Positions 1-31,518 of a DNA stretch of 64,000 nt are shown piece after piece. Each line of letters begins with the position of its first letter. The stretch's first letter is position 1. Made by a program: the position numbers and the translations under genes. The DNA lies in the IMG/VR virus record IMGVR_UViG_3300034954_001721. One strand, given 5' to 3'. Origin of the DNA: a virus. Under the pieces are notes generated by a model, which worked only from the letters and a program-made list of their open reading frames with translations, was not told the origin of the DNA and made no database searches.

Positions 1-365
1 TGGAAACTTATTCTAAAGTTTACGAAGAAAGAGAACCTCAAGCAATTGATGAGGGCATCATGGGTGCTCTTGCAAAGGTTGGTGAGGTAGTAGCAGAAGA
101 AAAAACTGCTGCTGATCCTGGTATGAAGGCAAGAATGGGTAAGGAAGCACCTAAAAAAGGTGGTTATCAACTTCCTAAGAGAACTCCTGAAAACGCAAAG
201 AACGTTGAGTATTATAAGGATGATGCAGACCTCTTTGATATCATCAAGGGTCACTTCATTGAGGAGGGTCTCACCGAAGAGGAAGCACTTGTTAAGATGT
301 TTGAACTTACTGAAGATGAGAAAATTGAAATTCTAAATAAAACCACTACGGAAGAAAACTCATGA
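1..365 (+). CDS. 5'-truncated putative internal head/virion protein
   Basis: Frame is open to the window edge (ETYSKVYEE...AIDEGIMG). The C-terminal DLFDIIKGHFIEEGLTEEEALVKM resembles the C-terminus of 29208..30224. Confidence 0.55.
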   Translation, partial: ETYSKVYEEREPQAIDEGIMGALAKVGEVVAEEKTAADPGMKARMGKEAPKKGGYQLPKRTPENAKNVEYYKDDADLFDIIKGHFIEEGLTEEEALVKMFELTEDEKIEILNKTTTEENS

Positions 366-16588: not shown

Positions 16589-16651
16589 CTCAGTTGGTAG
16601 AGCGCCTGCTTTGCAAGCAGGATGTCAGCGGTTCGAGTCCGCTTAACTCCA
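16579..16651 (+). tRNA. tRNA-Ala(UGC)
   Basis: Cloverleaf with G3:U70, anticodon TGC, GTTCGAG T-loop. Confidence 0.95.
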
Positions 16652-16666
16652 TAAATATTCAAAAAG

Positions 16667-16882
16667 ATGAATCCCTACATTAAAGAACTCATAGAAGATT
16701 TCAATGGGACAAACTATGAGCAGTTTGTGAAATACATTTATATGACTCTTCAAAGGGAAATTGATTCCTGTAGGGGCAAGGAAAAGAATAAATATATAAA
16801 GATAAAAAACGACATGCTCAGATACGTTACCTCAAACCGAGGTAGTGTTTCTCTTGCTCTTAGTAGAAATAGATATCAATGA
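16667..16882 (+). CDS. hypothetical protein
   Basis: ORF after a CATAAATA late-like box, coupled to the next gene. Confidence 0.55.
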   Translation: MNPYIKELIEDFNGTNYEQFVKYIYMTLQREIDSCRGKEKNKYIKIKNDMLRYVTSNRGSVSLALSRNRYQ

Positions 16883-18150
16883 AATCCTTTTTTCAATTTT
16901 TAAACGAATCTGCAACTCAGCAGGCACAACGTCTTGGTCTTGAAGGAGATGGTCATGGTGGTTGGTATGACCGTCAGACGGGTGAGTTTGTGGCAAAGAC
17001 TGAAAAGGGAAGATTAAAGTTTTATAATAAGCGTCAGAAAGTTGGTGGGGATGACCCTAACCAAACTGAATTAGAAAAAAATATATCTGATCCAAACTTC
17101 AATGACCCTGGTTTGCAGCAAGATGTTCCTCCTGAACAGCAGGCAGCACCAGTGCCAGAGGAACAACCACAAGTTGAAATTAGTCCTGATTTGGAAGCAG
17201 GACCACCACCAGTTCCCAAAACTAAAGGAACTTTGACTGTTGCATTTGGTAGATTTAACCCACCTCACGCAGGACATTTGCAGTTGATGGATACTGCAGC
17301 TGCAGTTGCTGCTGAAGAAGATAGTGATTATTTAATTGTTCCTTCACGTTCAAATGATCCTAAAAAGAATCCTTTGGATGCTGATACTAAGGTTGCATTT
17401 ATGAGAGGTATGTTCCCTCTTCATAGTTCTAGAATTCAGAACGATGTAAATACAAGAACTATCTTTGATGTGCTGAAAAAAGCACATAATGATGGATATA
17501 CTAATGTAAGAATTGTTGGTGGTGCTGATAGAGTAAAGGAGTTTGATAAACTTGCCAATAATTATAATGGTGCTCTCTATCAGTTTGATAATCTTGAGGT
17601 GTTATCTGCTGGTGATAGAGATCCTGATGCTGATGGAGTTGAAGGGATGTCTGCATCTAGATTGAGACTTGCTGCATCAGAAAATGATTTCAGAACTTTT
17701 AAATCTGCAATGCCTGAGGGTATGAGACCAAAAGATGCAAGAGAATTGTTCAATACTGTCCGTGCATCAATGGGTATTAATGAAGAGTGGGGTATCTGGG
17801 AAATGGCACCTAAGTTTGACCAACAAACTCTTCGTGAAAATTATGTCTCTAAGACTATCTTTAAAATTGGTCAGTTAGTTGAAAATATGAATACTGGTCT
17901 TATTGGTCGTATCATCCGTAGAGGTGCTAATCATCTTATTTGTGTTACTGAAGATAAGATTATGTTTAAGGCATGGATTAAAGATGTTAATGAATCAGTT
18001 GTCAATGGTACGAAAAGGGGTGGTGTACCTGCAAATCAAAGAGAAGTTGGTACAGACTCTCACTTTAGATATGTGCAGTCTATGGTTCCAGGATGCACTA
18101 TGTCTAGCGGAAAGGACTTTATAAATAAATATAAGATAAGGAAATCGTAA
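16879..18150 (+). CDS. cytidylyltransferase-like (HxGH nucleotidyltransferase) protein
   Basis: FGRFNPPHAGH, KKNPL, VGGADRV, GMSASRLR; N-terminal MKSFFQFLNE. Confidence 0.85.
   Translation: MKSFFQFLNESATQQAQRLGLEGDGHGGWYDRQTGEFVAKTEKGRLKFYNKRQKVGGDDPNQTELEKNISDPNFNDPGLQQDVPPEQQAAPVPEEQPQVEISPDLEAGPPPVPKTKGTLTVAFGRFNPPHAGHLQLMDTAAAVAAEEDSDYLIVPSRSNDPKKNPLDADTKVAFMRGMFPLHSSRIQNDVNTRTIFDVLKKAHNDGYTNVRIVGGADRVKEFDKLANNYNGALYQFDNLEVLSAGDRDPDADGVEGMSASRLRLAASENDFRTFKSAMPEGMRPKDARELFNTVRASMGINEEWGIWEMAPKFDQQTLRENYVSKTIFKIGQLVENMNTGLIGRIIRRGANHLICVTEDKIMFKAWIKDVNESVVNGTKRGGVPANQREVGTDSHFRYVQSMVPGCTMSSGKDFINKYKIRKS
18120..18127 (+). promoter_or_regulatory. T4-type late promoter
   Basis: TATAAATA. 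Confidence 0.65.
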
Positions 18151-18165
18151 TCGTAAAATCTTCCG

Positions 18166-19431
18166 ATGACTAAAAAGATATTTGAAGAACTTCCAGCACG
18201 TAAGCACTCCCCTGCTGCAGCACCTGTTGCTGCAAAAGGTAGTGATAGAAAAGAAAGTGGTGAGGGAGGTTCTGAGAAGAGAATCCGTCAAGCAGTGTAT
18301 GATATCCGATATCGTGCTAGAAGAGAGGGTATTGACTTGAGAGCAGCATACTCTCAGTATATGCAAAATAGTAATTTGAGTGCTCCCGAGCAAGCAGCAG
18401 TTAGAGCAAAACTGTTTGGCAAAGATGGTGGTGGTGATAAGAAAGAATCTTATACTCCATTAATGACTGACGGTGCAACTACATCAGTCGCTAATGCATT
18501 ATTCAAGGTTTTCGTTGAAGATCAACAAGAACAAGAATTTGTCTATGAAGATGAAGGTAGTGATAGAAAGTATAAGGTAAGAGTTACTGATGAGAAGACT
18601 AGTCGTTCGTATGTAAGATACGCTGACCGTGCAAAGATCAATGCTTTAAGAGCAAAAGGTCTTAAAGTTGAAATGACTGAGCACGGTGAACCTGTAGGTG
18701 AGCGTGGTAAGAAAGGAAAGATGGATCCTGTTGCTAAGAATCCAGCACAGAGAGATGGTGATGTAAACAACGATGGTAAGAAAGATGGTACTGATAAGTA
18801 CATCTATAACCGTCGTGATGCAATCAATGCAGCAATTGCTAAGAAAAAAGCAATGAAAGAAGAGTTGATTGTTGATGGAACCACTTCAACTGAAGGTCAA
18901 AACAAAGGCAAGATTACTGGCACTGGTGTAGATAACTATTCTACTGGTGTTGTTAAAGTAATGCCTGAAAATGGTGCTGATATTGATAAAATGAATAAAG
19001 TACGTAAAGGAATTTACGCACATACTGAAGTTGAAATGTCTATTTCTCAGCGTCGTTTGATGGAAATGATTGCGGAGAAGAAAAAGGCAGATGCTTGTGC
19101 TCACAGTGGTGAAGGTAAAGACTGTGAAGTACATGGTATGAAAGCATGTCCTGATTCTGTTTCTGAAGGAATGGGTGGGGACTGTGGTCCTGAAGAAAAG
19201 AAAAAAGAAGATACTAGAGCAGATAAAACTTACCGTGAAGTTCTTAAGAACAAATTGAGATCAATGGGTAAAAAAGTTCTTGCTGCTACTGGTGATGATG
19301 CAGAAGATTCATACGAAAAGATGGCGACTGCTTCTTTCGTTAAGATGGATAAAATGACTGGTAAGATGGAACCTGTAAGTCTTTATAAGGAAGGTTACAG
19401 TAAAAAAAAGAAAAAAAGTAAAGGAAAGTGA
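18166..19431 (+). CDS. hypothetical highly charged virion/internal protein
   Basis: QAVYDIRYRARRE, DGDVNNDGKKD loop, CAH...CEVHG...C motif. Confidence 0.65.
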   Translation: MTKKIFEELPARKHSPAAAPVAAKGSDRKESGEGGSEKRIRQAVYDIRYRARREGIDLRAAYSQYMQNSNLSAPEQAAVRAKLFGKDGGGDKKESYTPLMTDGATTSVANALFKVFVEDQQEQEFVYEDEGSDRKYKVRVTDEKTSRSYVRYADRAKINALRAKGLKVEMTEHGEPVGERGKKGKMDPVAKNPAQRDGDVNNDGKKDGTDKYIYNRRDAINAAIAKKKAMKEELIVDGTTSTEGQNKGKITGTGVDNYSTGVVKVMPENGADIDKMNKVRKGIYAHTEVEMSISQRRLMEMIAEKKKADACAHSGEGKDCEVHGMKACPDSVSEGMGGDCGPEEKKKEDTRADKTYREVLKNKLRSMGKKVLAATGDDAEDSYEKMATASFVKMDKMTGKMEPVSLYKEGYSKKKKKSKGK

Positions 19432-19436
19432 GGGAT

Positions 19437-19952
19437 ATGAAAACATTTCAACAGTTTGCCGAACAGGCATATTCATCAAAGCAGATTGATGAAGGTCTTC
19501 TTAAACAGCTTGGTGTCAAAGCATTAGAATATGGTACAAGAAATGCACCAAAGGTTATTAGAGCGGTTAAAGGTCTATTCTCAAAAGGTAAACCGAAGCC
19601 AATTCCTGCCGGTGATATTGGTGCTATGAGACTTCGCCAAGGTCAAGCAACAGATGCTGTGAATAGACTCAATAAGAGTACTGCAGCATCAAAGGCAAAT
19701 GATGCTACTCGCGCTGCAACGAGGGAAAGAACTAGATTGAATAATCTAGATCCTCGTGCTGTTAGTGACGCTAATAAGCGTAGAGAAGCTGCTCAAGTTA
19801 TGCAGAGAAATGTGGAAAAAGGTAGACCATCTTTTGCAGGACCACAACCAGTTGATAGATTAGACTACAGACCTGGTGATCCTATGTTTACAGATGCTCT
19901 GAAGAGATATTATGCTGCTAAGAGGGCAGGAGTAAAGGGACTTCCAAAATAA
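19437..19952 (+). CDS. putative internal head protein with capsid-targeting-like leader
   Basis: MKTFQQFAEQAYSSKQIDE followed by basic cargo. Confidence 0.6.
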   Translation: MKTFQQFAEQAYSSKQIDEGLLKQLGVKALEYGTRNAPKVIRAVKGLFSKGKPKPIPAGDIGAMRLRQGQATDAVNRLNKSTAASKANDATRAATRERTRLNNLDPRAVSDANKRREAAQVMQRNVEKGRPSFAGPQPVDRLDYRPGDPMFTDALKRYYAAKRAGVKGLPK

Positions 19953-25959: not shown

Positions 25960-26047
25960 TTCATATGCAGCATACAGAGAGGCGGCGAAATCAGACGCCT
26001 TTCTGTTTGGTGATTATGATGGATATCAAGCATTTGAAGATTTGGAT

Positions 26048-26081
26048 AAGGAGGGGTAATTCCCTCCTTTTTTTATAAATA
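26048..26081 (+). terminator. terminator fused to late promoter TATAAATA (26074-26081)
   Basis: aaggagggg-taat-tccctcctt, T-run, then TATAAATA. Confidence 0.75.
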
Positions 26082-26100
26082 CTAAAAAAGTCCGACTAAG

Positions 26101-26898
26101 ATGAAGACCTATACTCAATTTATTGAAGAATCCCATTCTGCTAGGGAAAATATTCAAGAAGCAATACCTCTGGCACTGATAGGTGCTGCAAAGTTAGCGA
26201 GTATGGGACTGAGTGCATATTCTGCTTATAGTGCAGCACAAAACTTAAAGAAAGGAAAGTATGGTGATGCTGCATTAGACGCTCTGGGAGTGGTTCCTGG
26301 AGGCGTTGCGTTTAAGGGTGCAAGAGCACTCGGTGCTAGTAGAAACCTTGCAAGAGGTGCTTCTGCAACTCAGAGTGTTGCAAGAAACTTTTCTCCAAAC
26401 GCCAGAAATCGTGCCATTGAAGGTGGAATCGATATGGCAACTAAGGCAGCACTTGGAACTGGTACTGCATCTGCTTCACAAACAGAACCATCAAAGACTC
26501 AACCAGCATCATCAACTCAACCATCTCAACCATCTCAACCATCTCAACCAGCACCTAGACCCAAACCTTCAAGTGTTGTTCTGGCACGTAAAGGTGGTGT
26601 AATGGGTAAGTTGGATAAAGCAACTGGAAAGTGGACTAAGGGTGATTGGACTAAACAGGAATCTGATAGATATAAGAGAGTTGCTGCTCAGAAAGCAGCA
26701 CCTAAACCAGCACCTGTTGTTAAATCTAACAACATAAATCTTCCTTCTGCAGTAACAGCAAAATCCGCTGTAAAAAAATCGGTACCAGTAGGTGATACTG
26801 TAAAGACAAAAGTGAATCCAGATAGTAGTCTTCAAGTAACTCAAAGAAGAAGTAAGGAGGCTACTGAGAAGATTAAGAAGTCTCTTGATATCAATTGA
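26101..26898 (+). CDS. putative internal head protein with capsid-targeting-like leader
   Basis: MKTYTQFIEE leader; Ala/Gly hydrophobic segments; SQP repeats; basic tail. Confidence 0.7.
   Translation: MKTYTQFIEESHSARENIQEAIPLALIGAAKLASMGLSAYSAYSAAQNLKKGKYGDAALDALGVVPGGVAFKGARALGASRNLARGASATQSVARNFSPNARNRAIEGGIDMATKAALGTGTASASQTEPSKTQPASSTQPSQPSQPSQPAPRPKPSSVVLARKGGVMGKLDKATGKWTKGDWTKQESDRYKRVAAQKAAPKPAPVVKSNNINLPSAVTAKSAVKKSVPVGDTVKTKVNPDSSLQVTQRRSKEATEKIKKSLDIN
26516..26550 (+). repeat. 9-bp coding tandem repeat (ctcaaccat, about 4 copies; SQP)
   Basis: Direct inspection. Confidence 0.85.
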
Positions 26899-26905
26899 AG
26901 CACTT

Positions 26906-26913
26906 TATAAATA
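26906..26913 (+). promoter_or_regulatory. T4-type late promoter
   Basis: TATAAATA. Confidence 0.7.
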
Positions 26914-26932
26914 TTTAAAAACAAAGTAGATA

Positions 26933-27322
26933 ATGAAATCGTATAAGGACTTTGTTGGAGAGTCTTACTCCGCTAGAGAAAACTTAGATGAGGGACTCGG
27001 TTCTCTTGCCGCCAAACTTATTCGTGGTACTGGAAAATTAGCATGGAAGGGTGCAAAGGCCACTCTTGGAAGTGATCGTGGAAGAAGAATTGTTGGTGGC
27101 ATTGGTGCTTATGATGCGGGTCAGAATGTTATGAAGGGTGAGAAAGGAGAAAGAAATAAAGGACATATGGGTTCTGTAGCGACTGGTGCTGCTGCAGCAT
27201 TGATGCCTAGAAGAGGTTTATTCCCTTATGCTGGTGCTGCTGCTTTAGGTCTTCATCTTGGCGATTATGTTTACAGACAAATGCGTCTGAGAGATAAAGA
27301 AAAGCAACTGAAGGGAAATTGA
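26933..27322 (+). CDS. putative internal head protein with capsid-targeting-like leader
   Basis: MKSYKDFVGESYSARENLDE leader, paralogous to the 26101 leader. Confidence 0.7.
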   Translation: MKSYKDFVGESYSARENLDEGLGSLAAKLIRGTGKLAWKGAKATLGSDRGRRIVGGIGAYDAGQNVMKGEKGERNKGHMGSVATGAAAALMPRRGLFPYAGAAALGLHLGDYVYRQMRLRDKEKQLKGN

Positions 27323-27323
27323 A

Positions 27324-29183
27324 ATGTCTACATTTAAAAGAATTCTATCAGAAAAAACACGTGGAGACTACGGTAGAAAGGGTGGTCAAGGTGGTGTTAA
27401 AGGAACTCGTACCACTCCTTTTGATAAAAGAGAAGCAAAAGCAAAAATAGATAATCCTCAGAAATATCAAACTCCAGCACGAGGTTCTAGGCAGGTAATT
27501 CCATCACCTCAACAAGGTATTGGTTTTGAAACTAATGCTCCTAGTGGAACTGTTCTTGGAGATAAAACACCAGAACAAGCATTTCGTGAAGTAGATACAA
27601 AACAGAAGAGAAGAGGAACTCAACCATCTTCTTTAAGGACACAACGTCAAGTAAGAGGATTTGGTAAACCAGATCCTGAAGTACAAAAAAAAGTTGCTGA
27701 TGACCTTAGGGGTCGTAAAGGAGCGGATCCTACAGCTAGAAGAGCAGCATCCAATATTCTTAGTGGTGGTAAAGCTCCTGATGCTGCCGATGAATTAATT
27801 GGTGGAGAAACAGCTAAAGAAAAAACAGGTCAAAGATATCGTCAAAGAAGACCAGCAGATGTAAGAGCATCTGGTGTTAAAAGTAGTGCTTATGCAGATT
27901 GGCAAAAACAAGCAGTTCGTACAAGGCAGCAATTAAAAGCATCTGGAACAAAATTCTTTGGTAAACCAACAGGTGTTGATGCACAAGGAAAACCAACTTA
28001 TGTTCCACCAAAGGAAACACCAAAAGGTGAGACTGGAAGAAGAGCACAAAGACAAGCATCTCCACGTTCATATGCATCTGTAAAAGCAGATCTTGAAGCA
28101 AAGACAAAAATAAAAGAATTAAAGGTTAAACCTAAAGCATCCACTAAACCGCCAGTATTAAAACCATCAACTAAAGTATCAGCACCACAACCAACAAGAG
28201 GATTTTCTACTTTTACTCAAGATGTGATGAGGGGTAAATATACACCTCAACCTCAACAACAACCCAACTTCCGAGCACCAACACCAACTAAACCAACAGT
28301 TTCAAAAGCAAAAGTTACTGGCGGAACTACTAGAGTAACTGATTTATCTCCTACTAAGAGACCTACAGGAACAAAAACTTTTGCACAGTTTGCAACTAGT
28401 GGAAGAACTGCGGCACAAAAACAAGCAACTTTAAAGGCATTAAGAACTTCACCTAAACCTGCTGTACAACCTAAAGTTACTGCCCCACCTAAACCTCAAG
28501 CACTTACTAAAGCAGCAGTTGCACCTAAAGTAAAAGTACCTAAGATAACTGCTGGTGGAGTTGCTGGTGGTGCTCTCAGTGCTTTAGGTGCTGGATTCGA
28601 CGTTGTACAAGGTCGTGAGGACGCTAAAAAGGCGGGTGCTAGTGACACTAGAGCGTGGTTGAGAGGTGCTGCAAGGGCAGCTGGAGGTCTTGTAGGAGGT
28701 GCTGTAGGTGCTAGTGGCGGTCTTGTCGGTGGCGTTGCTGGTTATTCTGTAGGTTCTGCATTGGCAGATAAGACCTTTACAGCACTTGCTGGTGCTACAG
28801 ACGCACAAAAGAAATGGATGAAACAAGCAAATCTTGCTTCTCAAAGAGGCACTGCTGTAGATAAAGTCAAATATAGAAAAGGCAATCAAGCAGTCATCTA
28901 TGATCCTAGAGTCAAGAAAGAGAGGATTGGAACTTTTGATCCAACGAGTGGAACATTCAAAGCTGGTAATTTGGCAAAATCTAAAGCATATACTGCGAAA
29001 AATCCATTTGAAAGACTTGGAAGACAATTCTCAAGATCAAATGAAGGTTCTGGACTGTTTGGTTTAAATATTGTAAAAGGTCATGGTCTCGCTGATATGG
29101 CGAAAAAATATTATGCTGATAGAGATGAGAAAGCGCGTATTAAGAGAGTTTCGGACTTCAAGAAATCTGCCTCCGCTAAATAA
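27324..29183 (+). CDS. large basic low-complexity protein with glycine zipper
   Basis: MSTFKRILSE start; Lys/Pro/Thr-rich; GGLVGGAVGASGGLVGGVAG. Confidence 0.7.
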   Translation: MSTFKRILSEKTRGDYGRKGGQGGVKGTRTTPFDKREAKAKIDNPQKYQTPARGSRQVIPSPQQGIGFETNAPSGTVLGDKTPEQAFREVDTKQKRRGTQPSSLRTQRQVRGFGKPDPEVQKKVADDLRGRKGADPTARRAASNILSGGKAPDAADELIGGETAKEKTGQRYRQRRPADVRASGVKSSAYADWQKQAVRTRQQLKASGTKFFGKPTGVDAQGKPTYVPPKETPKGETGRRAQRQASPRSYASVKADLEAKTKIKELKVKPKASTKPPVLKPSTKVSAPQPTRGFSTFTQDVMRGKYTPQPQQQPNFRAPTPTKPTVSKAKVTGGTTRVTDLSPTKRPTGTKTFAQFATSGRTAAQKQATLKALRTSPKPAVQPKVTAPPKPQALTKAAVAPKVKVPKITAGGVAGGALSALGAGFDVVQGREDAKKAGASDTRAWLRGAARAAGGLVGGAVGASGGLVGGVAGYSVGSALADKTFTALAGATDAQKKWMKQANLASQRGTAVDKVKYRKGNQAVIYDPRVKKERIGTFDPTSGTFKAGNLAKSKAYTAKNPFERLGRQFSRSNEGSGLFGLNIVKGHGLADMAKKYYADRDEKARIKRVSDFKKSASAK

Positions 29184-29207
29184 TAAGATAGAATAGAAAT
29201 AGTAAAA

Positions 29208-30224
29208 ATGCATATCTATATCTCTCAACATGCCCTTGAAGAGGGTGTGAATGCGATTGTAGAAGAGATGGTTCCTTTCTTATACATGATGTTGAGAGAG
29301 GGTTATGATGTAGAGTCAATCATTCAGTTTCTTGAAAGTGCTGAAGATGAAGACTTTGAATTTATCTACGAGCAGGCAGATTCTGAAATGCTTTCAGAGA
29401 GTGTCGTAGATGAAATGTCTGATGAGGAAGTTCTTTTGTATGAAGAGCAAATTGAACTTATCGTAGAGAATGTTCTCGCAAAGATGTTGAGTAAGATGAG
29501 TCCTGCTGCATTGAAAAAGTTTATAAAAAATAATGCTGCAGCAAGAAGACTTGCAGAAAGATTAGGTCTTCTTAAGAAATCTGCTCCTACTCCAAAACCA
29601 CCCAAATCTACTGCTCCAAAACCAAAGAGTAGTAGAACATCTCAGCAGCAGCAACAGACTGCAAGTCAACCACCCAAACCTACAAAACCAACTAAACCCA
29701 CAAAACCAGGTGGACCAGGTGGACCAGGTGGAATTCTCAAGTCTAAACCAGGAAAATTAACAGCAACTGCTCTTGTTGCTGCTGGTCTTGGTTATGGTTT
29801 AAATCAGGCAGGATTGTTCCCAGGTGCTAACGATCCAAAGATTGGAAATGATGGTCCAGGACAATCTGATTCACCTGCGGAAACAAAACCTGCAGAAACA
29901 AAACCTGCGGAAACAAATACTGATACTGATAATAAAAAACCACCAAAAGAAACAAAACCGTCAAGCAAAGGAACAGGTCGTCCTTGGTGGGTTGCATTAG
30001 ATAAGAAATTATTAACTAAACCATCAACTTTTAGAACTGATGTTGCTTTAAACAGATTTAGAAATCCTAGTGGTGGAATGATGACTCGCATCAACTCTCA
30101 TTATGAATATATGGTGGATTATCTTATCGCTGAAGGTCATGCAGAGACTGTAGAAGAAGCGACTTACGTTATGCAACAAATGGGTGAAGAAGCATCGATG
30201 AAAATTTTAAGTGAAGTCATTTGA
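29208..30224 (+). CDS. putative internal head protein with acidic pro-region, basic repeats and TM segment
   Basis: About 88-aa acidic N-terminus with many [L/I]xE sites; KPT/GGP/PAETK repeats; C-terminal YLIAEGHAETVEEA. Confidence 0.7.
   Translation: MHIYISQHALEEGVNAIVEEMVPFLYMMLREGYDVESIIQFLESAEDEDFEFIYEQADSEMLSESVVDEMSDEEVLLYEEQIELIVENVLAKMLSKMSPAALKKFIKNNAAARRLAERLGLLKKSAPTPKPPKSTAPKPKSSRTSQQQQQTASQPPKPTKPTKPTKPGGPGGPGGILKSKPGKLTATALVAAGLGYGLNQAGLFPGANDPKIGNDGPGQSDSPAETKPAETKPAETNTDTDNKKPPKETKPSSKGTGRPWWVALDKKLLTKPSTFRTDVALNRFRNPSGGMMTRINSHYEYMVDYLIAEGHAETVEEATYVMQQMGEEASMKILSEVI
29874..29917 (+). repeat. 15-bp coding tandem repeat x3 (PAETK)
   Basis: cctgcggaaacaaaa units. Confidence 0.85.
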
Positions 30225-30237
30225 AGATTTCAAAAAA

Positions 30238-30582
30238 TTATCTAGTAATTGATTTTTTAACCAAAACAGTTCCTTCCACAACTCTCTCTTTAATTCCTTG
30301 TGGATCTTGAAGTACAACGTCATAAAAATATTTCCCTGCTTTTAACTGTGAAGTATCAGTTGATCCCATTGATACTGTTAATCTTCCATTACTTCTATCT
30401 TGTGTAAAACTTACTGTAAAATCTTTTGTCTTACTAGAAGTTTCATATCTTCTAAGTTGTGCACAAGCATTATAATCTGAAAGATTTTTAAGTGAATTTG
30501 AAATAGAATCCTCCAATATAAAGGTAACAATAAAATCTGTTCCTGTATGAAGAACTAAGTCGTTTACAAATACTTCTGCCAT
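30238..30582 (-). CDS. small beta-sandwich virion-type protein (BppU_N-like), paralog 1
   Basis: GTDF...AQLRR...GRLTVSM...T..LKAGKYFYDV...RVVEG. Confidence 0.7.
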   Translation of the reverse strand: MAEVFVNDLVLHTGTDFIVTFILEDSISNSLKNLSDYNACAQLRRYETSSKTKDFTVSFTQDRSNGRLTVSMGSTDTSQLKAGKYFYDVVLQDPQGIKERVVEGTVLVKKSITR

Positions 30583-30609: not shown

Positions 30610-30954
30610 TTACGGGCAACCCGTTGTTACACCAGATCTAACTAAAACTTGACCTTCTACTGCGATTAATTTTTCATTATTTGTTTTTGTAATCATTACA
30701 TCATAAAGATATCTTCCAGGTTTTATGCTTGAGGTAATAGTGTCATCCATTGACAATGTTATTTTACCTTCTGTAGAACTTGTAATGCCGACAGTAAAGT
30801 TATAAGCAGTAGAACTATCTGGATGCTTTCTAACTTGAGATTCTAATGTGAATCCAGTTATATCGGTTGGAGTTCCATTAATCTGAAGAAGTTCAAGATT
30901 TTCGGAAAAATCAACGTGAGTATTAACGGTCAGATTTTTTACATATACTGACAT
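30610..30954 (-). CDS. small beta-sandwich virion-type protein (BppU_N-like), paralog 2
   Basis: SQVRKH...GKITLSM...IKPGRYLYDV...AVEG; same length as paralog 1. Confidence 0.7.
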   Translation of the reverse strand: MSVYVKNLTVNTHVDFSENLELLQINGTPTDITGFTLESQVRKHPDSSTAYNFTVGITSSTEGKITLSMDDTITSSIKPGRYLYDVMITKTNNEKLIAVEGQVLVRSGVTTGCP

Positions 30955-31068: not shown

Positions 31069-31518
31069 ATGAGTTATGAAAACCCATGGGTTTTTAAAGG
31101 TAAAACTTTTTTATCTGAAAATATTAATGACTTCTATGGTTTTGTCTATAGGATTACTAATTTACAATCAGGTAAAAAGTATATCGGTAGAAAATACTTC
31201 TGGTCCTTCAGAAAACCGCCAGGAAAAAAGCGAAAGGTAAAGCAAGAATCAGATTGGCAGAAGTATTATGGTTCTTGTCCTGAATTAAAGGAGGATATAA
31301 AAAAGTATGGCAAAGAGATCTTCAGTAGAGAAATACTGAGTCTTCACGGAACAAAGGGAACTTGTAACTTTGAAGAAACAAAACAATTGTTTCTCAATAA
31401 TGTGTTGTCGGAAGCACTTGACGACGGATCACCAGCATACTATAATAGCAACATTCTAGGACGCTATATGCGAAAAGACTATGGTAACTTTAGAGTCAAC
31501 TCTGAGGAAAATTCATGA
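31069..31518 (+). CDS. GIY-YIG endonuclease
   Basis: GFVYRITN...KKYIGRK, YYGS, conserved E, YYN. Confidence 0.8.
   Translation: MSYENPWVFKGKTFLSENINDFYGFVYRITNLQSGKKYIGRKYFWSFRKPPGKKRKVKQESDWQKYYGSCPELKEDIKKYGKEIFSREILSLHGTKGTCNFEETKQLFLNNVLSEALDDGSPAYYNSNILGRYMRKDYGNFRVNSEENS

Follow-up and report, generated by a model that had tools for sequence, protein, structure and literature searches.

We have analyzed a window of 64,000 nucleotides of viral DNA (IMG/VR record IMGVR_UViG_3300034954_001721), whose source is a T4-like cyanomyovirus, and found in it a set of at least five genes that begin with the same short N-terminal leader and continue into different cargoes. To judge from their sequences, these genes (named here by the position of their first letter in the window, Table 1) probably encode internal head proteins that carry a capsid targeting sequence (CTS) and are trimmed by a prohead protease. 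For the leader motif, MK[TS][YF]xxF (DNA form ATGAARWCNTWYNNNNNNTTY), 0.06 matches would be expected over both strands of the 64 kb; four are present, a number that was reached in 0 of 100 shuffles. In a six-frame regular expression scan these were the only sites, all of them on the + strand and all at the start of an open reading frame (ORF) with five or fewer open codons upstream: genes 16879 (423 amino acids), 19437 (171), 26101 (265) and 26933 (129). An earlier reading of the window, made from its letters (the sequence-only reading), had quoted several ORFs and N-termini, and all of them were found where it had placed them; among these was a third copy of the leader at 19437, which is a strict match at the ORF start, and gene 16879 adds a fourth strict copy.

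The leaders of 26101 and 26933 have 12 of 20 residues in common, and 7 of those 12 are written with different codons, so that their likeness is held by selection at the protein level and not by a recent copy of the DNA. These two proteins had been described as sharing a 20-residue leader and then diverging completely. The shared leader is real, but the divergence is not complete: BLASTP aligns the two over residues 1-70 against 1-87 (E = 1e-9), with a common AY.A.QN..KG..G after an insertion, and by this alignment both proteins appear to be weak paralogues past the leader. Gene 27324 starts with MSTFKRILSE/ (a slash marks a predicted cleavage point throughout), a junction that had also been pointed out. 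In 76 metagenomic relatives this decapeptide is the best-conserved part of the N-terminal 400 residues, and a distant relative has MKSFKGFLKE in its place; therefore, 27324 has the same tag in a variant, conserved form. The candidate processing sites are LNE10 in 16879, IDE19 in 19437, IEE10 and IQE20 in 26101, VGE10 and LDE20 in 26933 and LSE10 in 27324. Two further junctions of the sequence-only reading, AIDE/ at the window start (in the ORF 3..365) and the acidic region of 29208 that ends in LIVE/N, are present as well.

The CTS of T4 is MKTYQEFIAE, in which targeting depends on residues 4 and 7 and processing on residues 8 and 10, with propeptides of 10-19 residues, and related phages carry further basic proteins with CTS-like tags according to the same review (PMC9026906). 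We scanned phage genomes with the relaxed pattern M-K-x-[Y/F]-x-x-F, using the whole T4 record as positive control. There the scan returned ipI, ipII and ipIII, in agreement with the annotation, together with gene 61.1 and one more ORF of at least 40 amino acids. The real ORFs found in nine further phages were eight in AG-345-F15, three in P-TIM68, two each in P-SSM2, S-SKS1 and KVP40, one each in S-SM1, Syn9 and P-SSM4, and zero in S-PM2. A pooled set of 30 ORFs from the 10 phages and metagenomic contigs, picked on positions 1, 2, 4 and 7 only, was then compared with the 86 other ORFs of the window. Position 8 was L, I or V in 19 of the 30, Glu stood at position 10 in 19/30 leader ORFs versus 4/86 controls, and [LIVF]xE ended at residue 8-24 in 29/30. 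Positions 8 and 10, which lay outside the selection, correspond in sequence to those that T4 uses for cleavage. With the three T4 internal protein genes recovered and these two positions enriched, the proposal that the leaders are of the T4 internal-protein type and end in a prohead-protease-type [L/I]xE holds well. In the 26101 family (45 members) M1, K2, F7 and E20 are invariant in the leader, and in a relative whose leader is shortened to 13 residues IHE still adjoins the same cargo. The specificity of the prohead protease also looks conserved between T4 and cyanophages, as far as sequences tell: T4 gp23 is cut after Glu65 (FLTE/A) and the aligned site of cyanophage gp23 is FLSE/A.

It could be argued that the shared N-terminus is no targeting signal, being instead a paralogue remnant or a by-product of A/T-rich starts that favour translation (ATG AAA). 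An MK start is indeed frequent, with 16 other ORFs of the window beginning in this way, and 26101 and 26933 are weak paralogues. However, four of the seven window ORFs that start with MK[ST] combine [YF] as fourth residue with F as seventh, the tag stands on cargoes without detectable mutual homology (a nucleotidyltransferase-like enzyme and basic disordered proteins), it is common to T4 and KVP40, the unselected positions 8 and 10 obey the T4 processing rule, and the synonymous differences show constraint on the protein. We regard this explanation as extremely improbable.

The internal-protein reading would work as follows. Expression would be late, from TATAAATA promoters. The CTS, of the type of the T4 internal proteins IPI, IPII and IPIII, M-K-[T/S]-[Y/F]-x-x-F-[L/I/V]-x-E and sometimes lengthened to 13-20 residues, would dock each protein on the scaffolding core during prohead building, and a prohead protease of the gp21 type (Peptidase_S77) would cut at one or several [L/I/V]xE sites, behind the Glu. 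The cargo released in this way, strongly basic and largely disordered, would be kept in the head with the DNA and leave with it at infection. In 29208 a long conserved acidic N-terminal domain would replace the short leader. The same tag is present on the nucleotidyltransferase-like 16879 and on unrelated basic proteins, and between related phages the cargo domains are split, fused or recombined. Docking, cleavage, head residence and ejection are steps that we infer.

The likeness to IPI, IPII, IPIII and the other CTS proteins of T-even phages covers the tags themselves (MKTYQEFIAE and MKTFKEFTSTTTPVSTITE in T4; MKTYTQFIEE, MKSYKDFVGE, MKTFQQFAEQAYSSKQIDE and MKSFFQFLNE here), the [L/I]xE at the end of the tag, the TATAAATA upstream and the basic mature part (16879 apart), and also the scattering of the genes outside the head-gene cluster and the varying cargo behind a constant tag. 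In contrast, the mature parts found here are without sequence similarity to the T4 proteins, several are much larger (up to 609 amino acids) and mostly disordered, and some have conserved glycine zippers. Besides, one carrier is an enzyme-like core gene, the residue following the cut (P1') is often Gly instead of Ala, and the host is a marine cyanobacterium. As a separate observation on T4, its gene 61.1 (NC_000866, 18966-19130, - strand; 54 amino acids, annotated as hypothetical) starts with the CTS-like MKTFKEFIKE, with an IKE site. It adjoins the primase gene 61, and the leader genes 16879 and 19437 of the window likewise lie just upstream of gene 61.

TATAAATA is the canonical late promoter of T4 and fits the consensus NATAAATA described for cyanomyoviruses (PMC2984593). 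The window has 8 copies where about 4 would be expected over both strands, and all 8 are on the + strand. At the level of the motif, copies stand 20-45 nucleotides upstream of 26101, 26933 and 18166. Late boxes had been claimed for three of the four genes clustered between 26101 and 30224. This is correct for 26101 and 26933 but fails for 29208, where the box is CTAAATA, a word that does not fit NATAAATA, lies within the last codons and the stop of 27324 (at 29176) and is not enriched in the window (9 found, 12.6 expected). It is more likely that 29208 is transcribed by read-through from the promoter at 26906.

Table 1. Leader genes and transcription signals in the 64,000-nucleotide window
Feature	Position	Strand	Description
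Gene end, cut by the window edge	3..365	+	Internal AIDE/G junction, then amphipathic stretch; C-terminal acidic module DLFDIIKGHFIEEGLTEEE
Late-promoter-like box ATAAATA	16651..16657	+	Ahead of the 16667/16879 gene pair
16879	16879..18150	+	Leader MKSFFQFLNE/; cytidylyltransferase-like, 423 amino acids; T4-GC190 orthologue
Late promoter box TATAAATA	18120..18127	+	Ahead of 18166 and 19437
18166	18166..19431	+	Basic, 421 amino acids; phrog_3326, T4-GC191-like (P-SSM2 PSSM2_195); N-terminus MTKKIFEE; own processing conjectured
19437	19437..19952	+	Leader MKTFQQFAEQAYSSKQIDE/; basic cargo of 152 amino acids
Intrinsic terminator	26048..26069	+	9-bp stem with 5 G-C pairs, T run; closes the nrdA-nrdB unit
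Late promoter box TATAAATA	26074..26081	+	20 nucleotides before the start codon of 26101, directly after the terminator
26101	26101..26898	+	Leader MKTYTQFIEE/SHSARENIQE/; basic cargo of 245 amino acids with Gly/Ala-rich, moderately hydrophobic N-terminus
Late promoter box TATAAATA	26906..26913	+	Ahead of 26933; probably serves 27324 and 29208 too
26933	26933..27322	+	Leader MKSYKDFVGE/SYSARENLDE/; cargo of 109 amino acids; weak paralogue of the 26101 N-terminal domain
27324	27324..29183	+	Variant leader MSTFKRILSE/; cargo of 609 amino acids; disordered middle, conserved C-terminal domain with glycine zipper
29208	29208..30224	+	Acidic N-terminal 87 amino acids (charge -25) to LIVE/N; basic region; conserved acidic C-terminal tail

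There is published evidence that proteins with such N-termini reach the virion. Gene 16879, which matches PF01467 with 32 bits (cut-off 21), is the orthologue of PSSM2_194 of phage P-SSM2 (70% identity) and belongs to T4-GC190, a core protein of cyanophages that was detected in purified S-SM1 virions with 25 peptide counts in Table S8 (PMC3037559). The genes next to it in S-SM1, T4-GC1454 and T4-GC1455 (the latter with 7 counts), are also virion proteins, the gp21 gene is present in all 16 cyanophages of the same table, and the gp21 protein was detected in S-SM1 virions (PMC3037559). The S-SM1 version of T4-GC190 has the N-terminus MKKFSAFLNE, and all intact copies that we inspected (P-SSM2, S-SM1, Syn9, P-SSM4, P-TIM68 and AG-345-F15) start with MK[SK]F..F[LF].E, as does the S-SKS1 copy, though it seems broken in the record. 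T4-GC1455 is a protein of 162 amino acids with the N-terminus MLSFKELQE and occupies in S-SM1 the position of 19437. There is no sequence similarity between 19437 and this protein (S-SM1_192), so that the correspondence is positional only. Two cyanophage proteins with such N-termini, the orthologue of 16879 and the product of the gene at the position of 19437, are thus in published virions. The leader on T4-GC190 would explain why an enzyme-like protein appears there, which had been left unexplained (PMC3037559). The other leader genes of the window are not homologous to T4-GC190.

Two records of this gene deserve a comment of their own. In S-SKS1 (71984-73234) the tblastn match comes in two pieces, the ORF starting at MKSFFQF has 111 codons and no coding sequence is recorded. 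In S-PM2 the annotated start of p142 (V F L A T...) precedes by a good distance an internal MKRF that lines up with the starts of the orthologues, and it is probably mis-called.

The five basic cargoes are all widespread in marine metagenomes, with at least 220 clusters for 26101, at least 86 for 27324 and at least 66 for 29208. The sequence-only reading would have the leader better conserved than the cargo. In 27324 the leader (0.88) is indeed far above the next 400 residues, with values of 0.2-0.5 in the middle of the protein, but in 26101 the leader (0.83-0.86) only equals the best cargo block, with a dip just past the junction. In 29208 the acidic residues 1-80 are the most conserved (0.87-0.96), and the junction varies within the family (LIVE/N, LIIE/N, or a shifted GLME/G), always with [LIV]xE kept. 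The leader of 26933 is also kept in the orthologue on a syntenic 240-kb ENA contig (L058).

Several observations weigh against the proposal of tagged internal proteins. The 64-kb window contains neither head genes nor a prohead protease, and Peptidase_S77 is absent both from it and from the nearest record, a 31-kb fragment of the same region; the role given to gp21 comes, then, from the relatives P-SSM2 and AG-345-F15, which encode a protease of this type. The [LIVF]xE motif is also found in 34 of the 86 control N-termini, and being so common its mere presence is weak evidence. Gene 19437 lacks Glu at position 10 and has its site at residue 19. At 619 and 423 amino acids, 27324 and 16879 exceed the internal proteins of T4, whose precursors have 95-193. 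Searching 50,697 phage records by tblastn gave no match for 27324, 29208 or 19437, and for 26101 a partial one (AG-345-F15); beyond this, no homologue of the clustered genes was found in cultured phages. AlphaFold2 models were poor, with a mean predicted local distance difference test score (pLDDT) of 45.6 for the 29208 family (52 sequences) and 53.5 for the C-terminal domain of 27324 (29 sequences), too low to give structural support beyond "helical plus disordered".

Other searches were little informative. No Pfam or PHROG family scored above its cut-off with 26101, 26933, 27324, 29208 or 19437, and the only matches, to YL1, C19orf12 and T3SSipB, were rejected as below cut-off and driven by composition. 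The model of the 27324 C-terminal domain, compared by VIA-align with 48,161 PDB chains, reached a best Z of 7.5 against generic helical hairpins in its low-confidence part, and no fold was assigned. A feature search of the ESM Atlas returned unnamed clusters only, and a near-identity DNA search of the gene cluster against the same 50,697 phage records had zero matches. In the literature searched, with subscription papers outside its coverage, we found no paper dealing with both the CTS and cyanophages, and in the cyanophage genome papers, which report genes 67 and 68 missing, no mention of internal proteins.

The absence of genes 67 and 68 opens another explanation, in which part or all of the set, and 29208 in particular, would belong to the prohead core or scaffold in place of gp67/gp68, be cut into small pieces at the many internal [LIV]xE sites and be expelled before DNA packaging, with nothing delivered to the host. 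P-SSM2 and P-SSM4 have no homologues of these genes (PMC1079782). The N-terminal region of 29208 is acidic, helical and very conserved, with many [LIV]xE sites, and is followed by a basic region, a layout that T4 gp68 presumably has too; and an acidic module found in fusion proteins of relatives (see below) contains F[IL]xE/G. Nevertheless, a hidden Markov model (HMM) of this module had no match at E <=1 in the six-frame translation of the T4 67-68-21-22 region, and scaffold families of PHROGs or Pfam were not matched. The basic regions have few [LIV]xE sites and carry conserved domains, which argues for their survival, and T4-GC190 and T4-GC1455 were found in mature virions. That these genes are scaffold therefore seems to us quite unlikely, and head residence of the trimmed cargoes remains the reading we prefer.

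The predicted mature cargoes are rich in Gly/Ala or in Pro/Lys/Thr and mostly disordered. Their isoelectric points (pI) and net charges are 11.0 and +20 in 19437, 10.5 and +25 in 26101, 10.7 and +13 in 26933, 10.7 and +75 in 27324, and 10.0 and +18 in 29208; mature 16879 is not basic (pI 6.2). Such charges would be expected of internal proteins embedded in DNA. For the role after ejection we would place first a DNA-bound, charge-neutralising or protective one, followed by membrane insertion through the glycine-zipper segments.

The second of these roles is central to a rather unlikely alternative that keeps packaging and processing as above. According to it, cationic amphipathic N-termini and zipper segments insert into cyanobacterial membranes at DNA entry or block superinfection. 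The sequence-only reading had likened the predicted mature N-termini to membrane-active cationic helices, and in 18-residue windows close to them the hydrophobic moment is high in three of the five cargoes (0.70 in 19437, the top of the window proteome; 0.57 in 26933, 99th percentile; 0.52 in 29208, 98th percentile), though not in the other two. In unrelated cargoes of the relatives, an E/G junction is repeatedly found with an amphipathic, Lys/Arg-rich stretch behind it. However, basic amphipathic helices bind DNA too. The cargoes had further been said to carry glycine zippers or transmembrane segments. All six invariant columns of the 27324 C-terminal domain are zipper Gly, 9 of 29 relatives have C19orf12 matches (E 8e-4 or weaker), and there is a Gly/Ala-rich, moderately hydrophobic segment in all four clustered genes. 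On the other hand, none of the Gly-zipper_Omp, Gly-zipper_YMGG and C19orf12 profiles rose above the curated cut-off (the best, C19orf12, 16-17 bits versus 30), and no segment has the usual transmembrane hydrophobicity: the only hydrophobic stretch, in 26101, is borderline (mean Kyte-Doolittle 1.53 over 19 residues), and outside this gene no 19-residue window reaches a mean of 1.4.

An acidic propeptide masking the cargo until the capsid matures had also been proposed. This fits 29208, with its leader charge of -25, and no other gene: the short leaders have net charges of +1 to -2 and cannot mask a cargo of +13 to +75. Besides, T4-like myoviruses pass the envelope by means of the tail tube and baseplate, and we know of no internal protein required for their crossing. 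The strong positive charge and the Pro/Lys/Ala-rich disorder are at least as compatible with internal proteins bound to DNA as with a membrane role.

The giant phages offer a second comparison. Some processed head proteins of SPN3US have predicted transmembrane helices (PMC5694885), a point in favour of membrane insertion. T4 Alt and the head or ejection proteins of giant phages (SPN3US gp47, gp50, gp53 and gp54; phiKZ) are large or enzymatic head cargo cut after Glu by the prohead protease, as is predicted for the proteins described here. Proteins of the SPN3US/phiKZ type have propeptides of more than 100 residues with several internal sites, and paralogues with an identical N-terminus and a diverged rest. 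This likeness applies to 29208 and 16879. In contrast, the cleavage motif of SPN3US is A-x-E, there is no sequence homology, and a distinct inner body or ejection bolus is characteristic of the giant phages.

The modular character proposed for the system is borne out by the relatives, in which leader genes come and go at the locus and one cargo domain exists both on its own and in fusions. Syntenic 240-kb metagenomic contigs have, besides the same four genes, one more leader gene, in which MKSFEEFQQDTLTE/G leads into a Lys/Arg-rich helix, as well as two more late genes after nrdB. Proteins of 454-656 amino acids have the cargo of 19437 as their C-terminal domain. One of them (P0278, 589 amino acids, from a metagenomic relative) consists of an 18166-like part, an acidic module and a 19437-like part. 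Compared with it, 18166 and 19437 would be the outcome of a gene fission, or P0278 of a fusion, with the free second half having its own MKTFQQF leader. Another (P0274) joins the 19437 cargo to the C-terminal motif of the 26101 family. In the fusion proteins the acidic module DLFDI.KGEF..EGYSEED stands ahead of the cargo in place of an N-terminal leader, and its core is itself an [IL]xE/G site (F[IL]xE/G). In the form DLFDI[IV].G.F[IL].EG[YL][ST].E[DE] the module is also present in P0274, P0276, P0278, P0279, P0280, P0283 and P0284, and it has no Pfam or PHROG family. The HMM built from the metagenomic fusions matches residues 75-107 of the ORF at 3..365 (independent E-value 2e-8). The C-terminal tail of 29208 was not counted as a copy of the module; the reciprocal best BLASTP match has E ~1 and the HMM misses 29208.

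By their sequences, the proteins give the impression of address and cargo modules shuffled into different sets, and the large fusions may be processed like polyproteins. The mosaic cargo domains, fused or split around a recurrent acidic module, are new here. A bolder version, unlikely in our opinion, would be a combinatorial cargo system in which the leader, the acidic N-domain and the internal acidic module DLFDI.KG.F..EG[YL][ST].E are shuffled with cargoes, the protease frees the domains inside the head, and several zipper or amphipathic cargoes insert into the host envelope at ejection, a route not known for T4-like myoviruses.

Besides these genes, the window contains a replication module (clamp, clamp loader, DNA polymerase, UvsX, gp41, MazG, gp61, NrdA and NrdB), after which come auxiliary metabolic and sugar-modification genes. 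NrdA has 79% DNA identity to Synechococcus phage S-SKS1, and other genes have their closest counterparts in Prochlorococcus phage P-SSM2 and in the AG-345 single-cell virus contigs (genus Salacisavirus). On contig L058 (1289-3979, syntenic with 25960-26100 of the window), genes for a Peptidase_S8 of 646 amino acids and a fibre-like protein of 243 lie between nrdB and the homologue of 26101, the first preceded by TATAAATA and the second by CTAAATA; both are absent from the window. Beyond 29208, a tandem pair of paralogues of 114 amino acids (30238-30582 and 30610-30954, - strand) has ATAAATA ahead of each, and one of them shows a weak LtfC-like beta-sandwich match (21 bits versus a cut-off of 27). 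The pair probably consists of late structural genes that mark the border of the variable locus. A SegE-like GIY-YIG homing endonuclease follows at 31069-31518 (+ strand; PF19835, E = 7e-56), the S-SKS1 homologue of which is labelled 'NAD synthetase', in what looks like an annotation error. Adjoining the variable internal-protein locus, this endonuclease may promote its turnover.

The mechanism described is already known from the internal proteins of T4, and our finding is an extension of that system. T4-like cyanomyoviruses are among the most abundant marine viruses and, to our knowledge, almost nothing is known of what they inject besides DNA. The leader together with the [LIV]xE rule would predict packaged and delivered proteins straight from genomes and metagenomes, would account for the presence of the nucleotidyltransferase-like core protein T4-GC190 in virions, and would suggest that cyanophages inject a set of proteins that changes rapidly. 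The injected internal proteins of T4 are anti-restriction weapons. The genes described here would be concrete candidates for a part in counter-defence or in the early takeover of the host by the phages of Prochlorococcus and Synechococcus.

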